DNA of 18,230 nt, taken from a virus. The position numbers and the translations under genes are program-made. This document shows positions 1,863 through 10,720 of the stretch, in pieces. The notes under the pieces were generated by a model. The model had not been told where the DNA came from. It saw nothing but the letters and a program-made list of their open reading frames with translations, and ran no database searches. The stretch lies in UHGV virus genome UHGV-1777858; one strand, 5' to 3'. Numbering within the stretch: position 1 is the stretch's first letter; the number at the start of each line of letters is the position of its first letter.

Positions 1863-2654
1863 ATGAGCGAGAAATTAAAGATAGTCTATCGCCCATTACA
1901 AGAATTGTCACCGTATGCGCACAACGCCAGGACGCACAGCCCTGAGCAGGTGGCACAACTGGTAGAAAGTATTAAGCAATTCGGCTGGACTAATCCGGTG
2001 CTGATTGACGAAAAGGGCGAAATTATTGCGGGTCACGGTCGTGTTATGGCGGCTGAAATGCTCAAAATGGATTCTGTTCCGGTCATTGTTCTGTCTGGCC
2101 TGACGGATGAGCAGAAAAAGGCGTACCGCCTGGCAGATAATCGCCTGCCGATGAATGCTGGCTGGGATGAAGATCTGTTGCGGATGGAGCTGTCGGACCT
2201 AATCAATGCTGATTTTGATGTCTCCCTGACAGGCTTCATCCCGACAGAAATTGATGAACTGTTGACGGATGTTTTGCCCGGTACAGGAAATGAGGAGGAG
2301 CCGTATACGACGAAAATTGATACGCCTGTTTATGAGCCGTCGGGCGGTAAACCGGATATCAGTGAACTGTACGACGATACGAAAACTCAGGAGCTGATCA
2401 GCCGGATACGTTCGGCGTCCCTTGAGCCTGATATTGAGAAATTCCTCCTGTGTGCGGCAGAACGTCACACGGTGTTTAATTTCAGCAGAATTGCGGACTA
2501 TTACGCTCACGCCCCCTCTGAAATTCAGTGTTTTTTCGAGGAGTCGGCGCTGGTGATCATTGATTATCAGCAGGCTATTGAAAATGGATTTGTCCGGATG
2601 ACGCAGCGCATGGTGGAGATCATGCATGGTGGTGAGGAGGAGGAATATGCGTGA
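1863..2654 (+). CDS. ParB-like nuclease domain (ParB N-terminal domain) protein with a C-terminal domain of unknown function
   Basis: 263 aa. The N-terminal ~100 aa (YRPLQELSPYAHNARTHSPEQVAQLVESIKQFGWTNPVLIDEKGEIIAGHGRVMAA...YRLADNRL) has the ParB/sulfiredoxin-type arrangement with a glycine/arginine box (AGHGRVMAA). The C-terminal ~160 aa are acidic and I do not recognise them. SD AAGG lies 4 nt upstream of the ATG. Confidence 0.75.
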   Translation: MSEKLKIVYRPLQELSPYAHNARTHSPEQVAQLVESIKQFGWTNPVLIDEKGEIIAGHGRVMAAEMLKMDSVPVIVLSGLTDEQKKAYRLADNRLPMNAGWDEDLLRMELSDLINADFDVSLTGFIPTEIDELLTDVLPGTGNEEEPYTTKIDTPVYEPSGGKPDISELYDDTKTQELISRIRSASLEPDIEKFLLCAAERHTVFNFSRIADYYAHAPSEIQCFFEESALVIIDYQQAIENGFVRMTQRMVEIMHGGEEEEYA

Positions 2655-3546
2655 TGATTTTTGCGCCTTTATTCTGACTCACGGGCGACCGGACAAAGTT
2701 CTGACTTACCGGACGTTGCGTCGTGCTGGCTATACCGGGAAAATTTTTATCGTTGTTGATGAATTTGGTGAACAGGTGCTGGTGTTTTCCAAAGCCGATA
2801 TCGCCAGTCGTTTTGACGAAGCCGATAATTTCTGTGACCGCCGCTCAATTTTTTACGCCCGTAATGCCTGTTTCGACCTGGCAAAACTGGTCGGGTGTAA
2901 ATACTTCATTCAGCTCGATGATGATTATCACGAGTTCCAGTTTCGGGTGGATCGCAACTATGACCAGGCCTATTTTCCGATAAGGAAACTGGATGCGATC
3001 CTTTCTGAAATGCTGGCGTACTACGAATCAATACCTGCTCTTTCCATCGCTATGTCGCAGGGCGGGGATTTTCTTGGTGACAATGGCGGCCATGCTTCGT
3101 GGGTGAAACGCAAGGCAATGAACAGCTTTATCTGTTCGGTTGATCGACCGTTCTCATTCATGGGGCGCATTAACGAGGATGTGAATACGTACACGAATCT
3201 CGGTCGCTGTGGTGAATTGTTTATGACGATCGGTGCTGTCCAGTTAGGGCAGAAACAGACGCAGAAAAACAGCGGCGGAATGACCGAGCTGTATCTGGAT
3301 TCCGGAACCTACGTTAAAAGTTTTTACTCCGTCATGTATGCGCCGTCGTGCGTAAAAATCTCACTGATGGGTGCCAGCCATAAACGCATTCACCATCAGG
3401 TCACCTGGAACAACGCTGCAGTAAAAATCCTTCACGAAAAATACAGGAAGAAGACACCCTGCATATCAATGGGGGTGACAAATGATTCCGTATTCGAAAG
3501 TCGAGTCTCTGGCAGCGTGCCGGATGACTGCACAACAAATCGCTGA
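2647..3546 (+). CDS. GT-A fold protein, family-2-glycosyltransferase-like (putative glycosyl- or nucleotidyl-transferase; function unknown)
   Basis: Start ATG 2647 follows a strong SD (GAGGAGGAGGA) and overlaps the ParB-like stop as ATGCGTGA, suggesting translational coupling. The N-terminus matches the GT2 pattern: beta1 AFILTHGRPD, then GKIFIVVDEFG (compare EIIVVDDGS), then ARNACFDLAKLVGCKYFIQLDDDY (compare aRNxGxxxAxGxYixFLDxDD, DxD near residue 91-93). No transmembrane segment is evident. Confidence 0.55.
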   Translation: MRDDFCAFILTHGRPDKVLTYRTLRRAGYTGKIFIVVDEFGEQVLVFSKADIASRFDEADNFCDRRSIFYARNACFDLAKLVGCKYFIQLDDDYHEFQFRVDRNYDQAYFPIRKLDAILSEMLAYYESIPALSIAMSQGGDFLGDNGGHASWVKRKAMNSFICSVDRPFSFMGRINEDVNTYTNLGRCGELFMTIGAVQLGQKQTQKNSGGMTELYLDSGTYVKSFYSVMYAPSCVKISLMGASHKRIHHQVTWNNAAVKILHEKYRKKTPCISMGVTNDSVFESRVSGSVPDDCTTNR

Positions 3547-3733
3547 CGTTCTGGATGTTGATCTGAACCGACTGAAAGAAAATCGGGAAGCAATGACAGA
3601 TTTTTATGCGGCCATCCGTAAGGGCAGAGCGAAAGGTGAAGCCGAGTTACGAGCGGCATTGTTTAAGCTTGCCAGAAAAGGGGATGCCTTTGCTCTGCGC
3701 GAACTACTCAGGGTGGATAAAAATCAGGACTAA
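3482..3733 (+). CDS. Small hypothetical protein, HTH-like (possible packaging accessory or DNA-binding protein)
   Basis: 83-aa ORF with SD GGGGGTGA upstream of ATG 3482. It overlaps the 3' end of the preceding gene by 65 nt. It contains an HTH-like segment (MTAQQIADVLDVDLNRL); an alternative start is ATG 3524. Confidence 0.4.
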   Translation: MIPYSKVESLAACRMTAQQIADVLDVDLNRLKENREAMTDFYAAIRKGRAKGEAELRAALFKLARKGDAFALRELLRVDKNQD

Positions 3734-3736
3734 CTG

Positions 3737-4831
3737 ATGAGCAGACCGGACTGGGGGGCGTTGCAGCAGGAGTATATTGCTGAATACACCCGCTCCGGTA
3801 TATCTCCGGTGGCATGGTGTGAAGCAAGGGGACTGAATTACGCAACAGCCCGTCGTTACATCAAAAAAACTCCGAAAAATGCGCAGACAGAAATGTGCAA
3901 AACTGCGCAAAAAAGTGCGCAGAAAAAATCTGCGCAGACTGCACAAAAGCGGAACGAAAAATCTCAGGAAAAAAAGCCAGTATTCGATGCGGGCCTGAAT
4001 GAGGGCGACGCGGAGGAATTTTCGTTCTGTCCCGATGAATTCGGCATTTCTGACCAGCAGGCTAAGTTTGCGATGCTTGTTGCTCAGGGTAAAAAGCCGA
4101 CAGAGGCGTACCGACTAGCCGGTTATGAGGGGCAAGGTGCGACAGCTAACAGCAACGCCAGTCGTATGCTTAGAAATGCCAGGGTTTTTCGCGCTATCAG
4201 CTACTTCCGCAATCAGTACCAGAAACGCTATACCGCAGACCTGGATTTACTAGTGAGTCAGTTGATGGCTATTGTCCTGGCCGACCCCAATCAGCTTGCA
4301 CAATTTCGCCGTGTTAACTGCCGTTATTGCTGGGGCGAGAATCATCTCTACCAGTGGCGCGATATAGCAGAATTCGACAAGGCAGCGGCGCAGGCTTCCA
4401 GAGATGGCAAACCCGAACCGGAATATGGAGGCCTCGGCTTTGTTGATAACGCCATACCCAATCCGGACTGCCCGAAGTGCTGCGGTGAGGGAACGGGACA
4501 GCTTTATATGGCTGATACCACTCTGCTTGATGGGGATGCGCGGCAATTATATGCAGGGGCAAAATTCGGAAAATTCGGCGTTGAGATCCTGCTGGAGGAT
4601 AAGGCTGCCGCCCGGCGTGAATTGTTGCGTTTGCTTTCTGCTGGCGGGGATTTATGTGCAGATAAGCGGCTACAGGAACTGGAAATTGAACGGCGCAGAA
4701 TGGAAAACCAGAAGCTGCGCAAAGAGATCGAAACGGTGGAAGATAATGAACATCCCCAGCCTGTGGCGATCAATATTAATGTGGTTGATGCCAGAGTAAG
4801 GAGTGATGAAGATGATCTCTCCGACGCTTAA
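3737..4831 (+). CDS. Terminase small subunit (Terminase_2 / P27-like family) with N-terminal HTH domain
   Basis: 364 aa. N-terminal HTH-like segment (GISPVAWCEARGLNYATARRYIKK), a low-complexity K/Q/A linker, then a terminase-small-subunit signature (QQAKFAMLVAQGKKPTEAYRLAGYEGQGATANSNASRMLRNARVFRAISYF). Sits immediately upstream of terL and overlaps it. Confidence 0.85.
   Translation: MSRPDWGALQQEYIAEYTRSGISPVAWCEARGLNYATARRYIKKTPKNAQTEMCKTAQKSAQKKSAQTAQKRNEKSQEKKPVFDAGLNEGDAEEFSFCPDEFGISDQQAKFAMLVAQGKKPTEAYRLAGYEGQGATANSNASRMLRNARVFRAISYFRNQYQKRYTADLDLLVSQLMAIVLADPNQLAQFRRVNCRYCWGENHLYQWRDIAEFDKAAAQASRDGKPEPEYGGLGFVDNAIPNPDCPKCCGEGTGQLYMADTTLLDGDARQLYAGAKFGKFGVEILLEDKAAARRELLRLLSAGGDLCADKRLQELEIERRRMENQKLRKEIETVEDNEHPQPVAININVVDARVRSDEDDLSDA
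3872..3946. repeat. Cluster of palindromic TGCGCA hexamers (four perfect, two 1-mismatch) inside terS; candidate pac / TerS recognition repeats
   Basis: Perfect TGCGCA at 3880, 3904, 3916 and 3931; TGTGCA at 3894 and TGCACA at 3940. Spacing is 9-15 bp, and most copies are preceded by an A-run and followed by A/G-A (AAAAnTGCGCAGA). Confidence 0.45.
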
Positions 4832-6113
4832 TGTGCCTCAGGCGCGATTTCTTTCAATGCCCCATAAATTTAAAGCCTATATTGCTGGTTTTGGCTCGGG
4901 CAAAACATGGGTTGGGTGTGGCGGCATATGCAAGGGGATTTGGGAGCATCCAGGTATAAATCAGGGATATTTTGCGCCAACGTATCCCCAAATTCGCGAT
5001 ATTTTTTACCCTACAGTGGAAGAAGTTGCTGCTGACTGGGGATTGAACGTAAAAATTAATGAGGGAAATAAAGAGGTTCACTTTTATTACGGACGCCAGT
5101 ATCGGGGAACCACTATCTGCAGATCGATGGAGAAGCCACAAACGATCGTCGGTTTCAAAATTGGTAATGCGTTGGTGGATGAACTGGACATTTTGCCGAA
5201 GGAAAAAGCCAGAACGGCGTGGCGCAAGATAATTGCGCGTATGCGTTATAAGATTGATGGACTTCGCAACGGTATTGACGTTACAACCACGCCGGAAGGA
5301 TTCAAATTTGTCTACGAGCAGTTTGTTAAAGCCGTGCGTGAAAAAACAGAGCTGGCCTCACTGTATGGTCTGGTGCAGGCATCTACTTTCGATAATGAAA
5401 AGAACCTGCCAGCAGATTACATTCCTTCGCTTCTTGAATCATACCCTCCAGAGCTGATTAAAGCCTATCTGCGAGGACAGTTTACTAACCTGACAAGTGG
5501 TACTGTTTACCATCAGTTTGACCGGAAACTGAATAATTGCGAAGAAGTGGAGCAGCCAGGGGAGCCGATTTATATTGGGATGGATTTTAACGTTGGAAAG
5601 ATGGCGGGAATCGTCCATGTGCTGCGTTTGGGGCTTCCATGTGCGGTAACTGAAATCATCAATGCCTACGATACGCCGGATATGATCCGCATCATTAAAG
5701 AACGCTTCTGGCTGTATGATGGGAATGATTACCGGAAAGTGAGGGAAATTTATATTTATCCAGATGCTTCCGGGGATTCCAGAAAATCAAGTAACGCAAG
5801 TACGACGGATATAGCCCAGCTTAAGCAGGCTGGTTTTAACGTTGTGGTGAACAGCTCGAACCCGCCAGTAAAAGATCGCGTTAACTCAATGAATGCAATG
5901 TTCTGCAATGCCAATGGTGAGCGTCGCTATAAAGTTAATGTGAAGCGTTGCCCGTTATATGCCGAATCTCTGGAGCAACAGGTCTGGGATGAGAAGGGGG
6001 AGCCTGATAAAAAATCTGGCAATGATCACCCGAATGATGCCGGAGGTTATTTCATCGTTAAGCAATTCCCTATTGTCAAACCGACCGGAAGAGTCACATC
6101 ACTTCGGATTTAA
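4812..6113 (+). CDS. Terminase large subunit (ATPase/nuclease)
   Basis: Walker A-like motif near the N-terminus (AGFGSGKTWVG), size ~430 aa, position directly after terS. The ORF is open from GTG 4803; ATG 4812 has the best spacing from SD AAGGAG (4798-4803). Confidence 0.9.
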   Translation: MISPTLNVPQARFLSMPHKFKAYIAGFGSGKTWVGCGGICKGIWEHPGINQGYFAPTYPQIRDIFYPTVEEVAADWGLNVKINEGNKEVHFYYGRQYRGTTICRSMEKPQTIVGFKIGNALVDELDILPKEKARTAWRKIIARMRYKIDGLRNGIDVTTTPEGFKFVYEQFVKAVREKTELASLYGLVQASTFDNEKNLPADYIPSLLESYPPELIKAYLRGQFTNLTSGTVYHQFDRKLNNCEEVEQPGEPIYIGMDFNVGKMAGIVHVLRLGLPCAVTEIINAYDTPDMIRIIKERFWLYDGNDYRKVREIYIYPDASGDSRKSSNASTTDIAQLKQAGFNVVVNSSNPPVKDRVNSMNAMFCNANGERRYKVNVKRCPLYAESLEQQVWDEKGEPDKKSGNDHPNDAGGYFIVKQFPIVKPTGRVTSLRI

Positions 6114-6115
6114 TT

Positions 6116-7522
6116 ATGGCTGATATATCAACACCCAACCTCGACTATAACGATATGCTGGAGGCGTGGGATATTAACGACGCACTGATGGGCGGTACGC
6201 TTGAAATGCGCAGGCAGGGGGAAAATTATCTCCCAAAATGGCCTAACGAAGATGAAGACGCTTATAAAAAACGCCTGTCTGCGGCTACGCTACTTCCTGT
6301 GTATGAAGAAAGCATCAAGCAAAATATTGGGCGCATATTTGCAGAGCCGACAGTATTGAGTGAGGAAACGCCGGCAAAAATCAGGGAATATGCAGAAAAT
6401 ATCGACATGGAGGGAAGCCGACTGGATGTGTGGGCGCAGCAATTTTTCAGCCTCGCATTTCAGTATGGTGTGGCACATGCGCTGGTGGACTATCCACGAA
6501 CGGATATGAAAGAGATTCGGACAAAAGCCGATGAAAACGCGGCCGGTAGTCGTCCGTACGTTACGATGCTGAATCCACGCCAGGTTATTGGATGGAAATC
6601 GAAAGTTGAAAAAGGGAAAGTTGTTCTCACTGATTTGCGTATAAAAGAGGTCATCATTATTGATGGTGATGATTTCGGGCAGAAGAAGGTGGAGCAGATC
6701 CGCCATATTATGCCCCGTCGAGTTGAAATTTATCGACGTAGCGAAGGCACTAATGGCGAATCTGTCTGGACGCTTCATGAGTCATGGAATACCAGCCGTG
6801 ATGATATTCCTCTGGTAACACTGTACACGAAGAAAACAGGATTTATGCGTGGTACACCGCCATTGCTTAATCTTGGCTTGCTGAATATCAAGCACTGGCA
6901 AAGCCAGAGCGAGCAGGACAATATTCTTCATGTTGCCCGCGTTCCATTGCTGGTGGCCTACGGGCTGGACAGGAATGAAGAACTGACGGTTGGTGCATCC
7001 ACCGCTACGATTTTTGAGGACAGAACAAAAAATGGCCTCGAATATGTTGAACATAGTGGCGCAGCGATAGAATCTGGCGAAACATCACTTGAGAAGCTGG
7101 AAAATCAGATGCGTCATGCCGGCGCTAAACTTCTGCGTGCTGAAAATACATCCACCAAATCTGTTGATCAGACTAATGAAGAGCGAATGCAGGAAAACTC
7201 GCCGCTTTATACAATGGCGAACTCCCTCGAAGATGCCCTCGATAATATTCTCCAGATAATGGCGGAATGGATCGGAGAGAGTTGCGGTGGCAATGTGGAT
7301 GTGCGCACTGAACTGGATGTATCTGCCCAGGTGTTTGACTCATCCTCCGCGCTGGCTGTTCAGTCATTGCGTCAGGGCGGTGATATACGTCAGATTGATG
7401 CGATTCGGGTGTTGCAGGCGTTGAAATTTATCGATCAGGATTCCCGTCCAGAGGAAGTGATCGATGAATTAAAAAATCAGAGTGTAATGCTGATGGAAAT
7501 CAATGATGCAAACCGTGAATGA
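6116..7522 (+). CDS. Phage portal protein (probable)
   Basis: 468-aa ORF immediately following terL (stop TAA 6111-6113, ATG 6116), with an acidic C-terminus. Position and size fit a portal; family assignment is from memory of similar prophage proteins and is not verified. Confidence 0.7.
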   Translation: MADISTPNLDYNDMLEAWDINDALMGGTLEMRRQGENYLPKWPNEDEDAYKKRLSAATLLPVYEESIKQNIGRIFAEPTVLSEETPAKIREYAENIDMEGSRLDVWAQQFFSLAFQYGVAHALVDYPRTDMKEIRTKADENAAGSRPYVTMLNPRQVIGWKSKVEKGKVVLTDLRIKEVIIIDGDDFGQKKVEQIRHIMPRRVEIYRRSEGTNGESVWTLHESWNTSRDDIPLVTLYTKKTGFMRGTPPLLNLGLLNIKHWQSQSEQDNILHVARVPLLVAYGLDRNEELTVGASTATIFEDRTKNGLEYVEHSGAAIESGETSLEKLENQMRHAGAKLLRAENTSTKSVDQTNEERMQENSPLYTMANSLEDALDNILQIMAEWIGESCGGNVDVRTELDVSAQVFDSSSALAVQSLRQGGDIRQIDAIRVLQALKFIDQDSRPEEVIDELKNQSVMLMEINDANRE

Positions 7523-8618
7523 ACGGCTGCGTGATGAATCAATTGCTCATGCAGTCTGGATATCCCGCTATAGCACTGGCGTGGCTGCCAGAATGGTGAA
7601 AATACTGAATGACAGCGATGCGGAACTTACTGCTCGCCTGCTGATAGCACTGGACAGCCTCGATCCAGGTAGTTTTACCGTTAAGCGCCTGGAGTCACTT
7701 CTGGCGAGCGTCAGAGAGGTTAACCGCACTGCTATTAACAGCATGTTTACCAGTCTCTCCGGAGAGCTGAACGAGCTGGCAATTTATGAGGCTGGTTATC
7801 AGTTAAGTCTGTTTGATTCTATGCTACCTGATTTTGTTGCTGATGTTCACCCTCTGGTTGGTATCTCTCCTGATGCACTTTATGCCGCTGCAATGGCGCG
7901 ACCATTTCAGGGACGACTGCTCAGTGAGTGGGCCTCAGATCTTGAGGCGGATCGGCTCAGACGCATAACAAATACAGTGCGTCAGGGTTTTTTGCTGGGG
8001 GATACCAATGAGCAGATCGCAAGAAAAATTCGGGGACATGTCAGTAAGGGATTTCAGGATGGTGCATTGCAGATGAGCCGGGCTAATGCGGCCAGCATTG
8101 CAAAAACAGCGGTTGGACATCTTGCTGCTACTGCCCGTGAGAGTTTTGCCAGCGCGAATAATGATTTGATTAAGGGTAAGCAATGGTTATCAACGCTTGA
8201 TAATCGTACTACGCCACAATGTCGAATCAGGGATCGCCTCAAATATACGCTGAATAATAAACCTGTAGGTCACAGCGTGCCTTATTTGCAGGGGCCGGGA
8301 AAAATTCATTTCTGCTGCCGCTCAACGGAAACGTTCATTCTGAAATCAGCGAAGGAACTGGGTATTGATGTTCGCGATATTTCCCCGGCTGAGCGGGCCA
8401 GCATGGATGGCGTGGTGGCCGGAGATACAACCTACAGGGAATGGTTTTTGCGTCAGCCTTACACCAGACAAAAACAGATTGTGGGGGAAACCCGAGCAAA
8501 GCTGATTCGGGATGGTGGTATGTCGCCAGATGAATTTTACACCGATAAAGGCGAATGGCTGACGCTGAAGCAGCTCCGTGAGCGTGATGCACAGGTATTC
8601 AGAAAAGCAGGGATTTAA
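7503..8618 (+). CDS. Head morphogenesis protein (Mu F / SPP1 gp7-like minor head protein)
   Basis: 371 aa, overlaps the portal 3' end and lies between portal and scaffold. Sequence character (e.g. ...GISPDALYAAAMARPFQGRLLSEWASDLE...) is consistent with the Phage_Mu_F family, not verified. Confidence 0.75.
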   Translation: MMQTVNERLRDESIAHAVWISRYSTGVAARMVKILNDSDAELTARLLIALDSLDPGSFTVKRLESLLASVREVNRTAINSMFTSLSGELNELAIYEAGYQLSLFDSMLPDFVADVHPLVGISPDALYAAAMARPFQGRLLSEWASDLEADRLRRITNTVRQGFLLGDTNEQIARKIRGHVSKGFQDGALQMSRANAASIAKTAVGHLAATARESFASANNDLIKGKQWLSTLDNRTTPQCRIRDRLKYTLNNKPVGHSVPYLQGPGKIHFCCRSTETFILKSAKELGIDVRDISPAERASMDGVVAGDTTYREWFLRQPYTRQKQIVGETRAKLIRDGGMSPDEFYTDKGEWLTLKQLRERDAQVFRKAGI

Positions 8619-9580: not shown

Positions 9581-10720
9581 ATGGCTGGAAATACCCTGAC
9601 CGGGTTGATCCCGACTATTTATACCGCCCTGGATGTTGTATCCCGTGAGCAGGTAGGTTTTATCCCTGCGGTAGCAAAAAACGCAAAAGCTGACGCCGCA
9701 GCAAAAGATCAGACGGTAACCGCGCCAGTTGCGCCTGAGGCGAAAACCGAAGATATCGTACCGGGGCCGTCAGCTCCGAATACCGGTGATCAAAATATTG
9801 GCACTGTTGATGTAAAAATTACTAAATCCAAAATGGCACCTGTTAAATGGAATGGTGAAGAACAACTGGCTCTTGGTCCTTCAGGGACTTACAACACCAT
9901 TCTGGCTGATCAGTTCAAGCAGGCTTTTCGCGCCCTTGCAAACGAGGTTGAGGCTGATCTTGGTGCGTTGTATTTCGGTGCTTCCCGCGCCGTGGGAACC
10001 GCAGGGACAACGCCGTTTGGTGTTAAAGATGATCTTTCTGATGCTGCTCTGGCTCGTCAGGTTCTGGAGGATAACGGCGCACCGACAACCGATCTGCAGA
10101 TGGTGCTTGGCTCCACTGCCATTGCTAATTTGCGCGGAAAACAGTCTGTATTGTTTAAAGTGAATGAATCCGGCACTGAACAGCTACTGCGTGAGGGCGT
10201 GTTGGGGCGTCTGGAGGGATTCAATATTCACAGTTCGGCAGGTGTGAAACGAGCGCCAAAGGTTGCTGCAACTGGTTATCTCGTGAATGGAGAGAAAAAA
10301 GAAGGCGATGTTCTTATTTCCATTGATACTGGTTCGGGGAGTATTTCTGCAGGTCAGATTGTTACGTTCGCTGGTGATCCGAATCAGTATGTTGTGGCAG
10401 CAGCGACCAGCAATCTGATTACTCTTGCAGCGCCCGGACTGCGTCAGGATCTGGCCGATGATACTGCCATCACAGTTGTTGGGGCCTTTACTGCAAATAT
10501 GGCGTTTGATCGCAACGCGTTTCTGCTGGCATCCCGTACTCCGGCAATGCCGGAAGGTGGCGATAATGCTGATGATGTAATGAATGTTACGGACCCGATT
10601 TCAGGGATTACGTTCCAGATTGCACTGTATCGTCAGTATCGCCAGGTGCGCTATGAAGTTGGACTGGCATGGGGTGTTTCATCAGTGAAGCCGGCACATG
10701 GTTGTCTGATTCTTGGTTAA
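9581..10720 (+). CDS. Major capsid protein (probable)
   Basis: 379 aa from ATG 9581 (SD AAGGA at 9566-9570; the ORF track starts at TTG 9488). Lies after the scaffold gene and is followed by a strong terminator, consistent with a highly expressed coat gene. Family not verified. Confidence 0.7.
   Translation: MAGNTLTGLIPTIYTALDVVSREQVGFIPAVAKNAKADAAAKDQTVTAPVAPEAKTEDIVPGPSAPNTGDQNIGTVDVKITKSKMAPVKWNGEEQLALGPSGTYNTILADQFKQAFRALANEVEADLGALYFGASRAVGTAGTTPFGVKDDLSDAALARQVLEDNGAPTTDLQMVLGSTAIANLRGKQSVLFKVNESGTEQLLREGVLGRLEGFNIHSSAGVKRAPKVAATGYLVNGEKKEGDVLISIDTGSGSISAGQIVTFAGDPNQYVVAAATSNLITLAAPGLRQDLADDTAITVVGAFTANMAFDRNAFLLASRTPAMPEGGDNADDVMNVTDPISGITFQIALYRQYRQVRYEVGLAWGVSSVKPAHGCLILG

Follow-up and report, generated by a model that had tools for sequence, protein, structure and literature searches.

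A TGCGCA array inside the small terminase gene of a Rac-like prophage is a candidate recognition site for the N-terminal domain of its own TerS

The terS gene and its hexamer array

We analysed an 18,230-nt stretch of the virus genome UHGV-1777858 (hereafter the window), which is part of a Rac-like lambdoid prophage of Escherichia coli, focusing on an array of TGCGCA hexamers inside its small terminase gene, terS. The array occupies DNA that encodes a flexible linker of TerS, behind the codons of an accessory N-terminal domain with a predicted helix-turn-helix (HTH) fold, and is probably a binding array for that same domain. The features of terS and of the gene behind it are as follows (window coordinates, strand, description and, in brackets, evidence).

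3737–4831, + strand: small terminase gene terS, 364 aa (Pfam Terminase_2, aa 122–321)
3737–3871, + strand: terS codons 1–45, accessory N-terminal HTH-like domain, predicted reader of the hexamers (AlphaFold2, Foldseek)
3851–3853, + strand: terS codon CGT for Arg39, in the predicted recognition helix YATARRYIKK (sole residue that tracks hexamer type)
3872–4036, + strand: terS codons 46–100, Lys-rich flexible linker, with the array inside its coding DNA (low predicted local distance difference test score, pLDDT; divergence)
3880–3945, no strand assigned: six-slot hexamer array with A-rich spacers (pattern count, relatives)
4037–4831, + strand: TerS core, comprising the canonical Terminase_2 HTH and oligomerisation region, a CxxC...CxxC insertion and a C-terminal tail (PF03592)
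4803–6113, + strand: large terminase gene terL, for the enzyme expected to cut and translocate TerS-marked DNA (Pfam Terminase_6N, E 3.7e-33; Terminase_6C, E 3.4e-10)

TerS matches PF03592 in Pfam with 35.1 bits against a gathering cut-off of 26.1 (aa 122–321), and terL lies directly downstream, starting at 4803, which together identify terS as a small terminase gene of the Terminase_2 type. The relatives of TerL are Jersey-like and Kagunavirus siphophages, which we take to package DNA by the headful mechanism. Of 5426 complete E. coli genomes, 883 have the 5' region of terS with its array.

Four perfect copies of TGCGCA (3880–3885, 3904–3909, 3916–3921 and 3931–3936) fall inside 57 nt and make up 4 of the 10 copies in the window, and one-mismatch copies at 3894–3899 (TGTGCA) and 3940–3945 (TGCACA) fill the remaining two slots. 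An earlier reading of this DNA from its letters alone (hereafter the original prediction) had described four perfect and two near-perfect copies, and we recovered the same ones; it had also translated the linker segment correctly as AQTEMCKTAQKSAQKKSAQTAQK and placed it between an HTH and the terminase domains, in line with the N-terminal three-helix domain (aa 6–40) and the Terminase_2 match (aa 122–321). The array segment itself translates as KNAQTEMCKTAQKSAQKKSAQTAQK. A count against expectation supports the array by its clustering and not by its total: the number of TGCGCA copies in the window is ordinary (10 versus 7.2 ± 2.6 expected), but of 3000 first-order Markov sequences with the composition of the window, a single one had at least four TGCGCA starts inside 55 nt. 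In a set of 80 close relatives from IMG/VR, perfect TGCGCA mostly fills slots 2 and 6 as well; the ancestral array would therefore have held six perfect copies.

Start-to-start spacings in the window are 14, 10, 12, 15 and 9 nt. The roughly helical spacing that had been proposed is matched only loosely by their mean of 12 nt, and the spacings of relatives peak at 7, 9, 12, 14 and 16 nt. With no conserved phase in either set, helical phasing was dropped.

Conservation of the array as DNA

A one-genome-per-species scan combined with phage records gave 67 intact loci, 55 with Arg and 12 with Lys at TerS position 39. At the Arg39 loci, the 180 nt that follow the helix contain TGCGCA at 27.8 per kb, compared with 0.79 per kb in the flanks (about 2.3 kb per locus), a 35-fold difference; at the Lys39 loci, a related hexamer, TGCGAA/TTCGCA, reaches 31 per kb after the helix versus 0.55 per kb in the flanks. 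The first hexamer starts at a median of 14 nt past the helix codons.

The 275 hexamers of the 55 Arg39 loci are spread over the three frames: xxT GCG CAx (Ala-Gln) accounts for 207, xTG CGC Axx for 55 and TGC GCA for 13, yielding the peptides AQ, (M/V/L)R and CA, respectively. Most copies in the window's own family are read as xxT GCG CAR (Ala-Gln), with slot 2 as ATG CGC AAA (Met-Arg-Lys), and two Klebsiella prophages whose TerS is 39% identical (L090/L092) carry six TGCGCA after the N-terminal domain, using three frames in one array (TAQ, LRT, KCAE). Codon choice follows the hexamer: 187 of 209 linker Ala-Gln dipeptides are coded T-GCG-CA, with GCG for Ala in 91% and T at the wobble position of the preceding, variable codon in 94%, whereas the Gln wobble position, one base outside the hexamer, is free (CAA 114, CAG 95). 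Between the window and an 82%-identical homologue (L086), 34 of 36 hexamer bases are the same, versus 18 of 30 in the spacers, 105 of 132 in the HTH-coding DNA and 51 of 91 in the downstream linker, and both hexamer differences are the window's own degenerate copies. The linker sequence is strongly divergent among relatives. Judged from these alignments and counts, the array is a DNA-level element, conserved as DNA rather than as protein; the frames, the fixed synonymous sites and the divergence of the spacers bear out the earlier suggestion that the repeat is under more constraint than the protein.

An ordinary low-complexity Lys/Ala/Gln-rich linker, generated by replication slippage and with no function at the DNA level, is an exceedingly improbable explanation. 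Tandem Repeats Finder does report repeats of period 12 and 36 here, although only 2.1–2.3 copies at 80–87%; the linker is predicted to be disordered; and the number of whole units changes relative to the family among close relatives (+1 in L063, −3 in L064, −1 in L066), which is compatible with either reading. Against slippage, different peptides result from the three frames, synonymous sites inside the hexamer are fixed while neighbouring wobble positions vary, spacers diverge while hexamers stay identical, and the sister lineage encodes AN, SQ and CE from TGCGAA. Frames, codons and spacers all contradict a protein-only reading of the linker.

The conserved feature might instead be a structure of the mRNA (or a cruciform) formed by the self-complementary hexamers, acting for instance through ribosome pausing in the A-rich linker. 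Positions 3865–3955 fold at −29.8 kcal/mol versus −15.6 ± 2.7 for shuffles (z = −5.35), the predicted fold includes an 8-bp stem, UGCGCAGA/UCUGCGCA, at 3916–3936, and many database open reading frames (ORFs) are frameshifted in the A-rich stretch. However, the hexamers do not vary in sequence and show no compensatory changes, and neither pairing partners nor spacings are conserved. In Pasteurella phage Pmp11 the array consists of nine direct TGCGAA and zero TTCGCA, and it cannot form hairpins because all nine are in one orientation. A search of Rfam with the array RNA returned no match. Since a GC-rich palindrome is repeated, the strong folding is probably a by-product, and a structural role appears very improbable.

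terS ORFs stop or change frame in or just after the A-rich array in about 7 of 74 species-representative genomes (L102, L128, L135, L148, L156, L158; about 60–300 nt into terS), and well over a hundred truncated proteins of 44–81 aa (P0121–P0240) end in tails encoded by other frames of the array. Possible causes are sequencing error in homopolymers, decay of the prophages and real slippage; programmed −1 frameshifting at the A runs was rejected, as the zero-frame codons (CAA AAA AGT) form no X XXY YYZ slippery site. In one full-length TerS (P0037; L084/L085 1501–2598), three +1 changes in A runs shift and then restore the frame across the array, leaving the hexamers intact while the peptide becomes KCAERNAQNCAKKCAKKKLRRLRK, and this was seen in two sequencing runs. 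We do not rely on this frame evidence because the portal gene of L084 is also split and sequencing error is possible.

A predicted reader at the N terminus of TerS

In a 75-aa AlphaFold2 model, the N terminus of TerS forms helices at aa 6–20, 24–30 and 35–~44, with pLDDT of 82–87 over aa 11–40; values below 50 at aa 54–66 and 71–75 predict a disordered linker. The top Foldseek matches in the PDB, although all at E>1, are without exception HTH DNA-binding domains (the DeoR DNA-binding domain, Aca1, sigma region 4 and IstA). Pfam assigns no significant family to the domain, and its homologues give weak hints of HTH_23, HTH_29 and HTH_Tnp_1. A profile search found the domain at the N terminus in all of 296 clusters at 50% identity, and it is present in at least 70 other species. 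In a 565-aa protein (P0371), which is made up of about eight tandem repeats, each repeat is a relative of the TerS N-terminal HTH (consensus ...EEKWLALVKEQxASGKSQxxWCEExGI...), suggesting a broader group of transposase-like HTHs that includes this fold.

Covariation of residue 39 with the hexamer

Distant homologues fall into two groups, one with the helix ...A-R-R-Y/H... and TGCGCA, the other with ...A-K-R-Y... and TGCGAA/TTCGCA, the latter often arranged as the palindrome TGCGAATTCGCA. Arg39 goes with TGCGCA at 55 of 55 loci and Lys39 with TGCGAA/TTCGCA at 12 of 12, without exception in 67 loci, and position 39 is the sole column of the domain that discriminates hexamer type. In the closest Arg/Lys pair (L139/L152), 2 of 43 residues differ, yet the former has four TGCGCA and the latter seven TGCGAA/TTCGCA; Lys39 sequences in general are roughly as near to Arg39 sequences as to one another. 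Since TGCGCA and TGCGAA differ solely at position 5 (C versus A), we infer that Arg39 contacts the G:C pair at that position directly. Protein-level proxies from 114 further clusters (50% identity) point the same way, with 3.4 AQ per 60 aa on average in Arg39 tails, and AN, SQ or CE in their place in Lys39 tails. The palindromy of TGCGCA may be incidental, because the TGCGAA of the sister specificity is non-palindromic.

Residue 39 could also be a passenger, with the array bound or modified by another factor, such as a host protein, the product of a ParB_N or glycosyltransferase-like gene upstream, or a restriction-modification enzyme acting on TGCGCA. Type II enzymes recognise palindromes of this kind, and the hexamer resembles their targets. 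At 7 of the 12 Lys39 loci, moreover, the (Ser/Thr)-Ala-Lys codons themselves spell TGCGAA; because the Lys codon then sits in the hexamer, selection on the DNA could dictate the residue and the association of Lys could be partly DNA-driven. On the other hand, the remaining 5 loci keep a Lys codon that no hexamer covers, and in that frame a TGCGCA could not encode Arg39 at all. The non-palindromic TGCGAA also speaks against a type II target, the HTH domain is the sole constant neighbour of the arrays while upstream genes vary by lineage, and a third, unrelated repeat goes with an unrelated HTH (below). We regard the involvement of another factor as quite improbable.

Mobility, recurrence and decay of the predicted reader and its array

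Downstream of the linker, the TerS proteins fall into three main core clusters, each of which includes both the Arg39/TGCGCA and the Lys39/TGCGAA module. Klebsiella phage RothC, Pasteurella phage Pmp11 and Aeromonas phage phiARM81mr share only about the first 50 aa with the TerS of the window, and all three have arrays. These two observations indicate that the array follows the N-terminal domain and not the Terminase_2 HTH or core. When viral contigs were scanned for sets of three TGCGCA close together, the N-terminal domain lay directly ahead of at least 72 of the first 120 matches.

A TerS encoded by PP818812 has a core 81% identical to that of the window joined to an unrelated, HTH_50-like N terminus, and its linker DNA has repeats of TTTCCA and of TGGAAA; at the same place, relatives with 56% identity have TTTCCA two to three times followed by TGGAAA three to four times. 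Because an unrelated HTH on the same core has its own repeats, the design would have arisen at least twice. In the prophage Rac-SA53 (L001 2412–3440), the HTH was lost through a deletion that joined gene O to terS within the array, and three of the copies that remain are mutated to TTCGCA, TGCGCT and TGCCCA, a pattern that probably represents decay of an array once its reader is lost.

We give even odds to the view that the accessory HTH and its own hexamers in the tether DNA form a portable packaging-specificity cassette in many prophages of Enterobacterales, Aeromonas and Pasteurella. Such a cassette would be movable between unrelated TerS cores and would follow a one-residue/one-base code (Arg39/TGCGCA, Lys39/TGCGAA), and the same design would recur in the unrelated HTH family with TTTCCA/TGGAAA.

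Mosaic junctions occur at the array, for example the O::terS fusion and the start, at about 3889 of the window, of nucleotide homology to PP818812 (L002 2207–3298) and to Rac-SA53. PP818812.1 is recorded as 'Actinobacillus phage vB_Apl-pPE4' with the host Actinobacillus pleuropneumoniae, and its terS-terL DNA is 93% identical to E. coli Rac-like prophages, an unexpected match for a Pasteurellaceae host. An IS1 element at the first hexamer in E. coli CUWW10 (L296 1301–1445) reflects prophage decay and was set aside as uninformative. Clusters of 5–6 TGCGCA with no recognised HTH before them were found in the viral contigs L178 (~2120–2210), L206 (~10430–10550), L216 (~1118–1200), L291 (~1553–1640) and L274 (~1890–1980); they may represent iterons or operators, or may belong to terminase modules that have diverged further.

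A candidate role in packaging

We assign a probability of roughly 0.65 to the reading that the array is a cis-acting binding array for the TerS N-terminal HTH and forms the recognition part of the pac site, with binding, multivalency and the packaging role all argued from comparative data. The original prediction had proposed a plausible terminase recognition element of the pac type inside terS, and residue 39, which tracks the hexamer at 67 of 67 loci, lends support to that proposal.

Small terminases of the Terminase_2 type are ring oligomers with peripheral HTHs (PMC9611059), and by analogy TerS would be expected to form a ring whose extra HTHs hang on flexible, Lys-rich tethers of about 55 residues. 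Each subunit's extra HTH would read a single hexamer, whose C:G pair at position 5 would be contacted by Arg39 in the recognition helix. Because the HTHs are on flexible tethers, a ring could engage several of the 5–9 hexamers at once within about 70–100 bp despite their irregular spacing. Such multivalent binding would mark phage DNA with high avidity and sequence specificity, and TerL could then be recruited, cut nearby and start a headful packaging series. Because the sites lie in the DNA that encodes the reader's tether, reader and site would be inherited and recombined as one cassette. Contig starts that lie 18–40 nt before the array at several loci were considered as physical DNA ends and rejected as an artefact, these contigs being internal pieces of longer ones.

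The most serious alternative to packaging is that the TerS HTH binds the array for regulation, through autoregulation of late-operon transcription or translation via terS or through the timing of terminase assembly. Autoregulation is common among HTH proteins whose binding repeats lie in or close to their own gene, and the comparative data that speak for binding fit this role just as well. However, the domain is fused to at least three types of TerS core, always at the N terminus, and terS lies in the middle of the late operon, beside terL. No promoter-related feature turned up at the array, although none was sought. Known pairs of terminase HTHs and sites, moreover, serve packaging specificity (PMC4669245). 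On balance, a regulatory role seems rather unlikely.

Several points weigh against the array as a TerS-binding packaging element. The window itself retains only four perfect copies. Hexamer spacing ranges from 7 to 16 nt and varies both inside and between lineages, unlike the fixed geometry of λ cosB. The HTH is predicted from an AlphaFold2 model that was built from 42 sequences, has a mean pLDDT of 67.7 and calls the third helix at aa 35–38 only, and from Foldseek matches with E values above 1 for a fold of ~40 residues. To these the overlap of the Lys39 codon with TGCGAA, described above, has to be added. Reader and site are about 10–40 nt apart, and because of this proximity co-inheritance alone proves nothing; the case for the putative interaction comes solely from hexamer conservation and from the fixed difference of one residue and one base. 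Finally, three distant members, each available as a protein sequence only (P0346, P0338 and P0373), have an Arg-type helix with no AQ repeats after it, and at the protein level the tails of P0346 and P0338 contain neither AQ nor AN repeats past the helix; binding sites of these members, if any, may lie elsewhere or in another frame.

Comparison with known packaging sites

We found no published description of TGCGCA in connection with pac or terminase in this sense, in a search where queries with phage names were swamped by unrelated 'PHB10' and 'pMP11' matches; papers on LF82 (Gally) and on gut viromes deal with other phages.

The closest precedents come from cos phages and from pac elements. 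In λ, 21 and N15, the R sequences of cosB covary with the recognition helix of the gpNu1 N-terminal winged HTH and define packaging specificity, and one R copy of N15 (rR2) lies inside the TerS gene (PMC4669245). The array resembles cosB in that several short repeats in or near terS are paired with a helix of an N-terminal TerS HTH and covary with it, here by comparison only. In contrast, cosB is mostly non-coding and consists of 1–3 sites of about 12–16 bp at a fixed distance from cosN, with a bend by integration host factor (IHF) between R3 and R2, whereas the terS array comprises 5–9 hexamers, all within the ORF and at variable spacings of 7–16 nt that do not match this fixed geometry (an IHF site was not searched for). 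The cosB sites belong to cos phages with a gpA-type TerL; the TerL of the window is of the Terminase_6N/6C type, and no gpA-type match was reported in the Pfam search with it. Unlike in cosB, the HTH is here an extra domain placed ahead of a Terminase_2 core that has an HTH of its own.

The pac hexamers of phage P1, TGATCA/G, include GATC and are under the control of Dam methylation; they are arranged in two groups that flank the cleavage region. P1 pac has seven hexanucleotide repeats (PMC11260489), and the window resembles it in that the gene for the recognition subunit of the terminase contains repeated hexamers; it differs from P1 in having one cluster, no GATC in TGCGCA and a TerS of the Terminase_2 type.

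Pac elements in or at terS are known for P22, SPP1 and P1 (PMC9611059, PMC11260489), with a 22-bp asymmetric site inside gene 3 in P22 and pacL/pacR in SPP1 (PMC9611059). The position of the array, 3880–3945 within terS (3737–4831), is like that of the pac sites of P22, SPP1 and Sf6. Unlike the single asymmetric 22-mer of P22, however, it consists of multi-copy hexamers with a dedicated accessory HTH, and the comparative data suggest a specificity code. According to a 2022 review, specific binding of TerS to pac in vitro is weak, non-specific or undetectable in P22, Sf6, SF6 and SPP1 (PMC9611059). The terS array would stand apart from all of these precedents in that its sites lie wholly in the ORF, are numerous and irregular, are predicted to be read by an added domain, and are coded in the tether of that reader.

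Neighbouring genes

The other genes of this part of the window are listed below.

250–1725: trkG-like K+ transporter gene
1863–2654: ParB_N-domain gene
2626–3546: TAGT-like glycosyltransferase gene
3482–3733: small ORF
6116–7522: portal gene
7503–8618: MuF-like gene

The ParB_N ORF and the ORF resembling a TET-associated glycosyltransferase (TAGT, E 3.4e-29) are located between the trkG-like moron and terS. This pair is present in the close E. coli relatives L084 and L087 and absent from L086 and from other genera, and no TET/JBP gene accompanies the TAGT-like ORF within the window. The two genes may form a DNA-modification or anti-restriction module.

Within the TerS core, the insertion at 4319–4480 (aa 195–248) carries CRYC at aa 195 and CPKC at aa 245 (CPKC-CGEG) and is zinc-ribbon-like. 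Its homologues match DnaJ_CXXCXGXG weakly, and Pfam Terminase_2 spans the insertion as a single 200-residue match.

Implications for pac-type packaging

How pac phages use their small terminases to single out viral DNA remains a question for the field, and this family offers a tractable case because the predicted reader is small and separate, the motif is short, exact and present in 5–9 copies, and nature provides a switch between Arg39/TGCGCA and Lys39/TGCGAA. If the proposed reading is true, pac phages would gain a clear instance of sequence-specific recognition of DNA by TerS, which has been hard to demonstrate for P22, Sf6 and SPP1. The locus would also be a case of overlapping codes, in which the same DNA specifies a protein linker and the sites for the domain that this linker tethers, and in which their linkage would be kept during mosaic recombination. 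With the array in 883 of 5426 E. coli genomes and the domain in at least 70 other species, a known pac signal would help to predict which prophages cross-package and where lateral or generalised transduction starts, and it would help to design packageable vectors.

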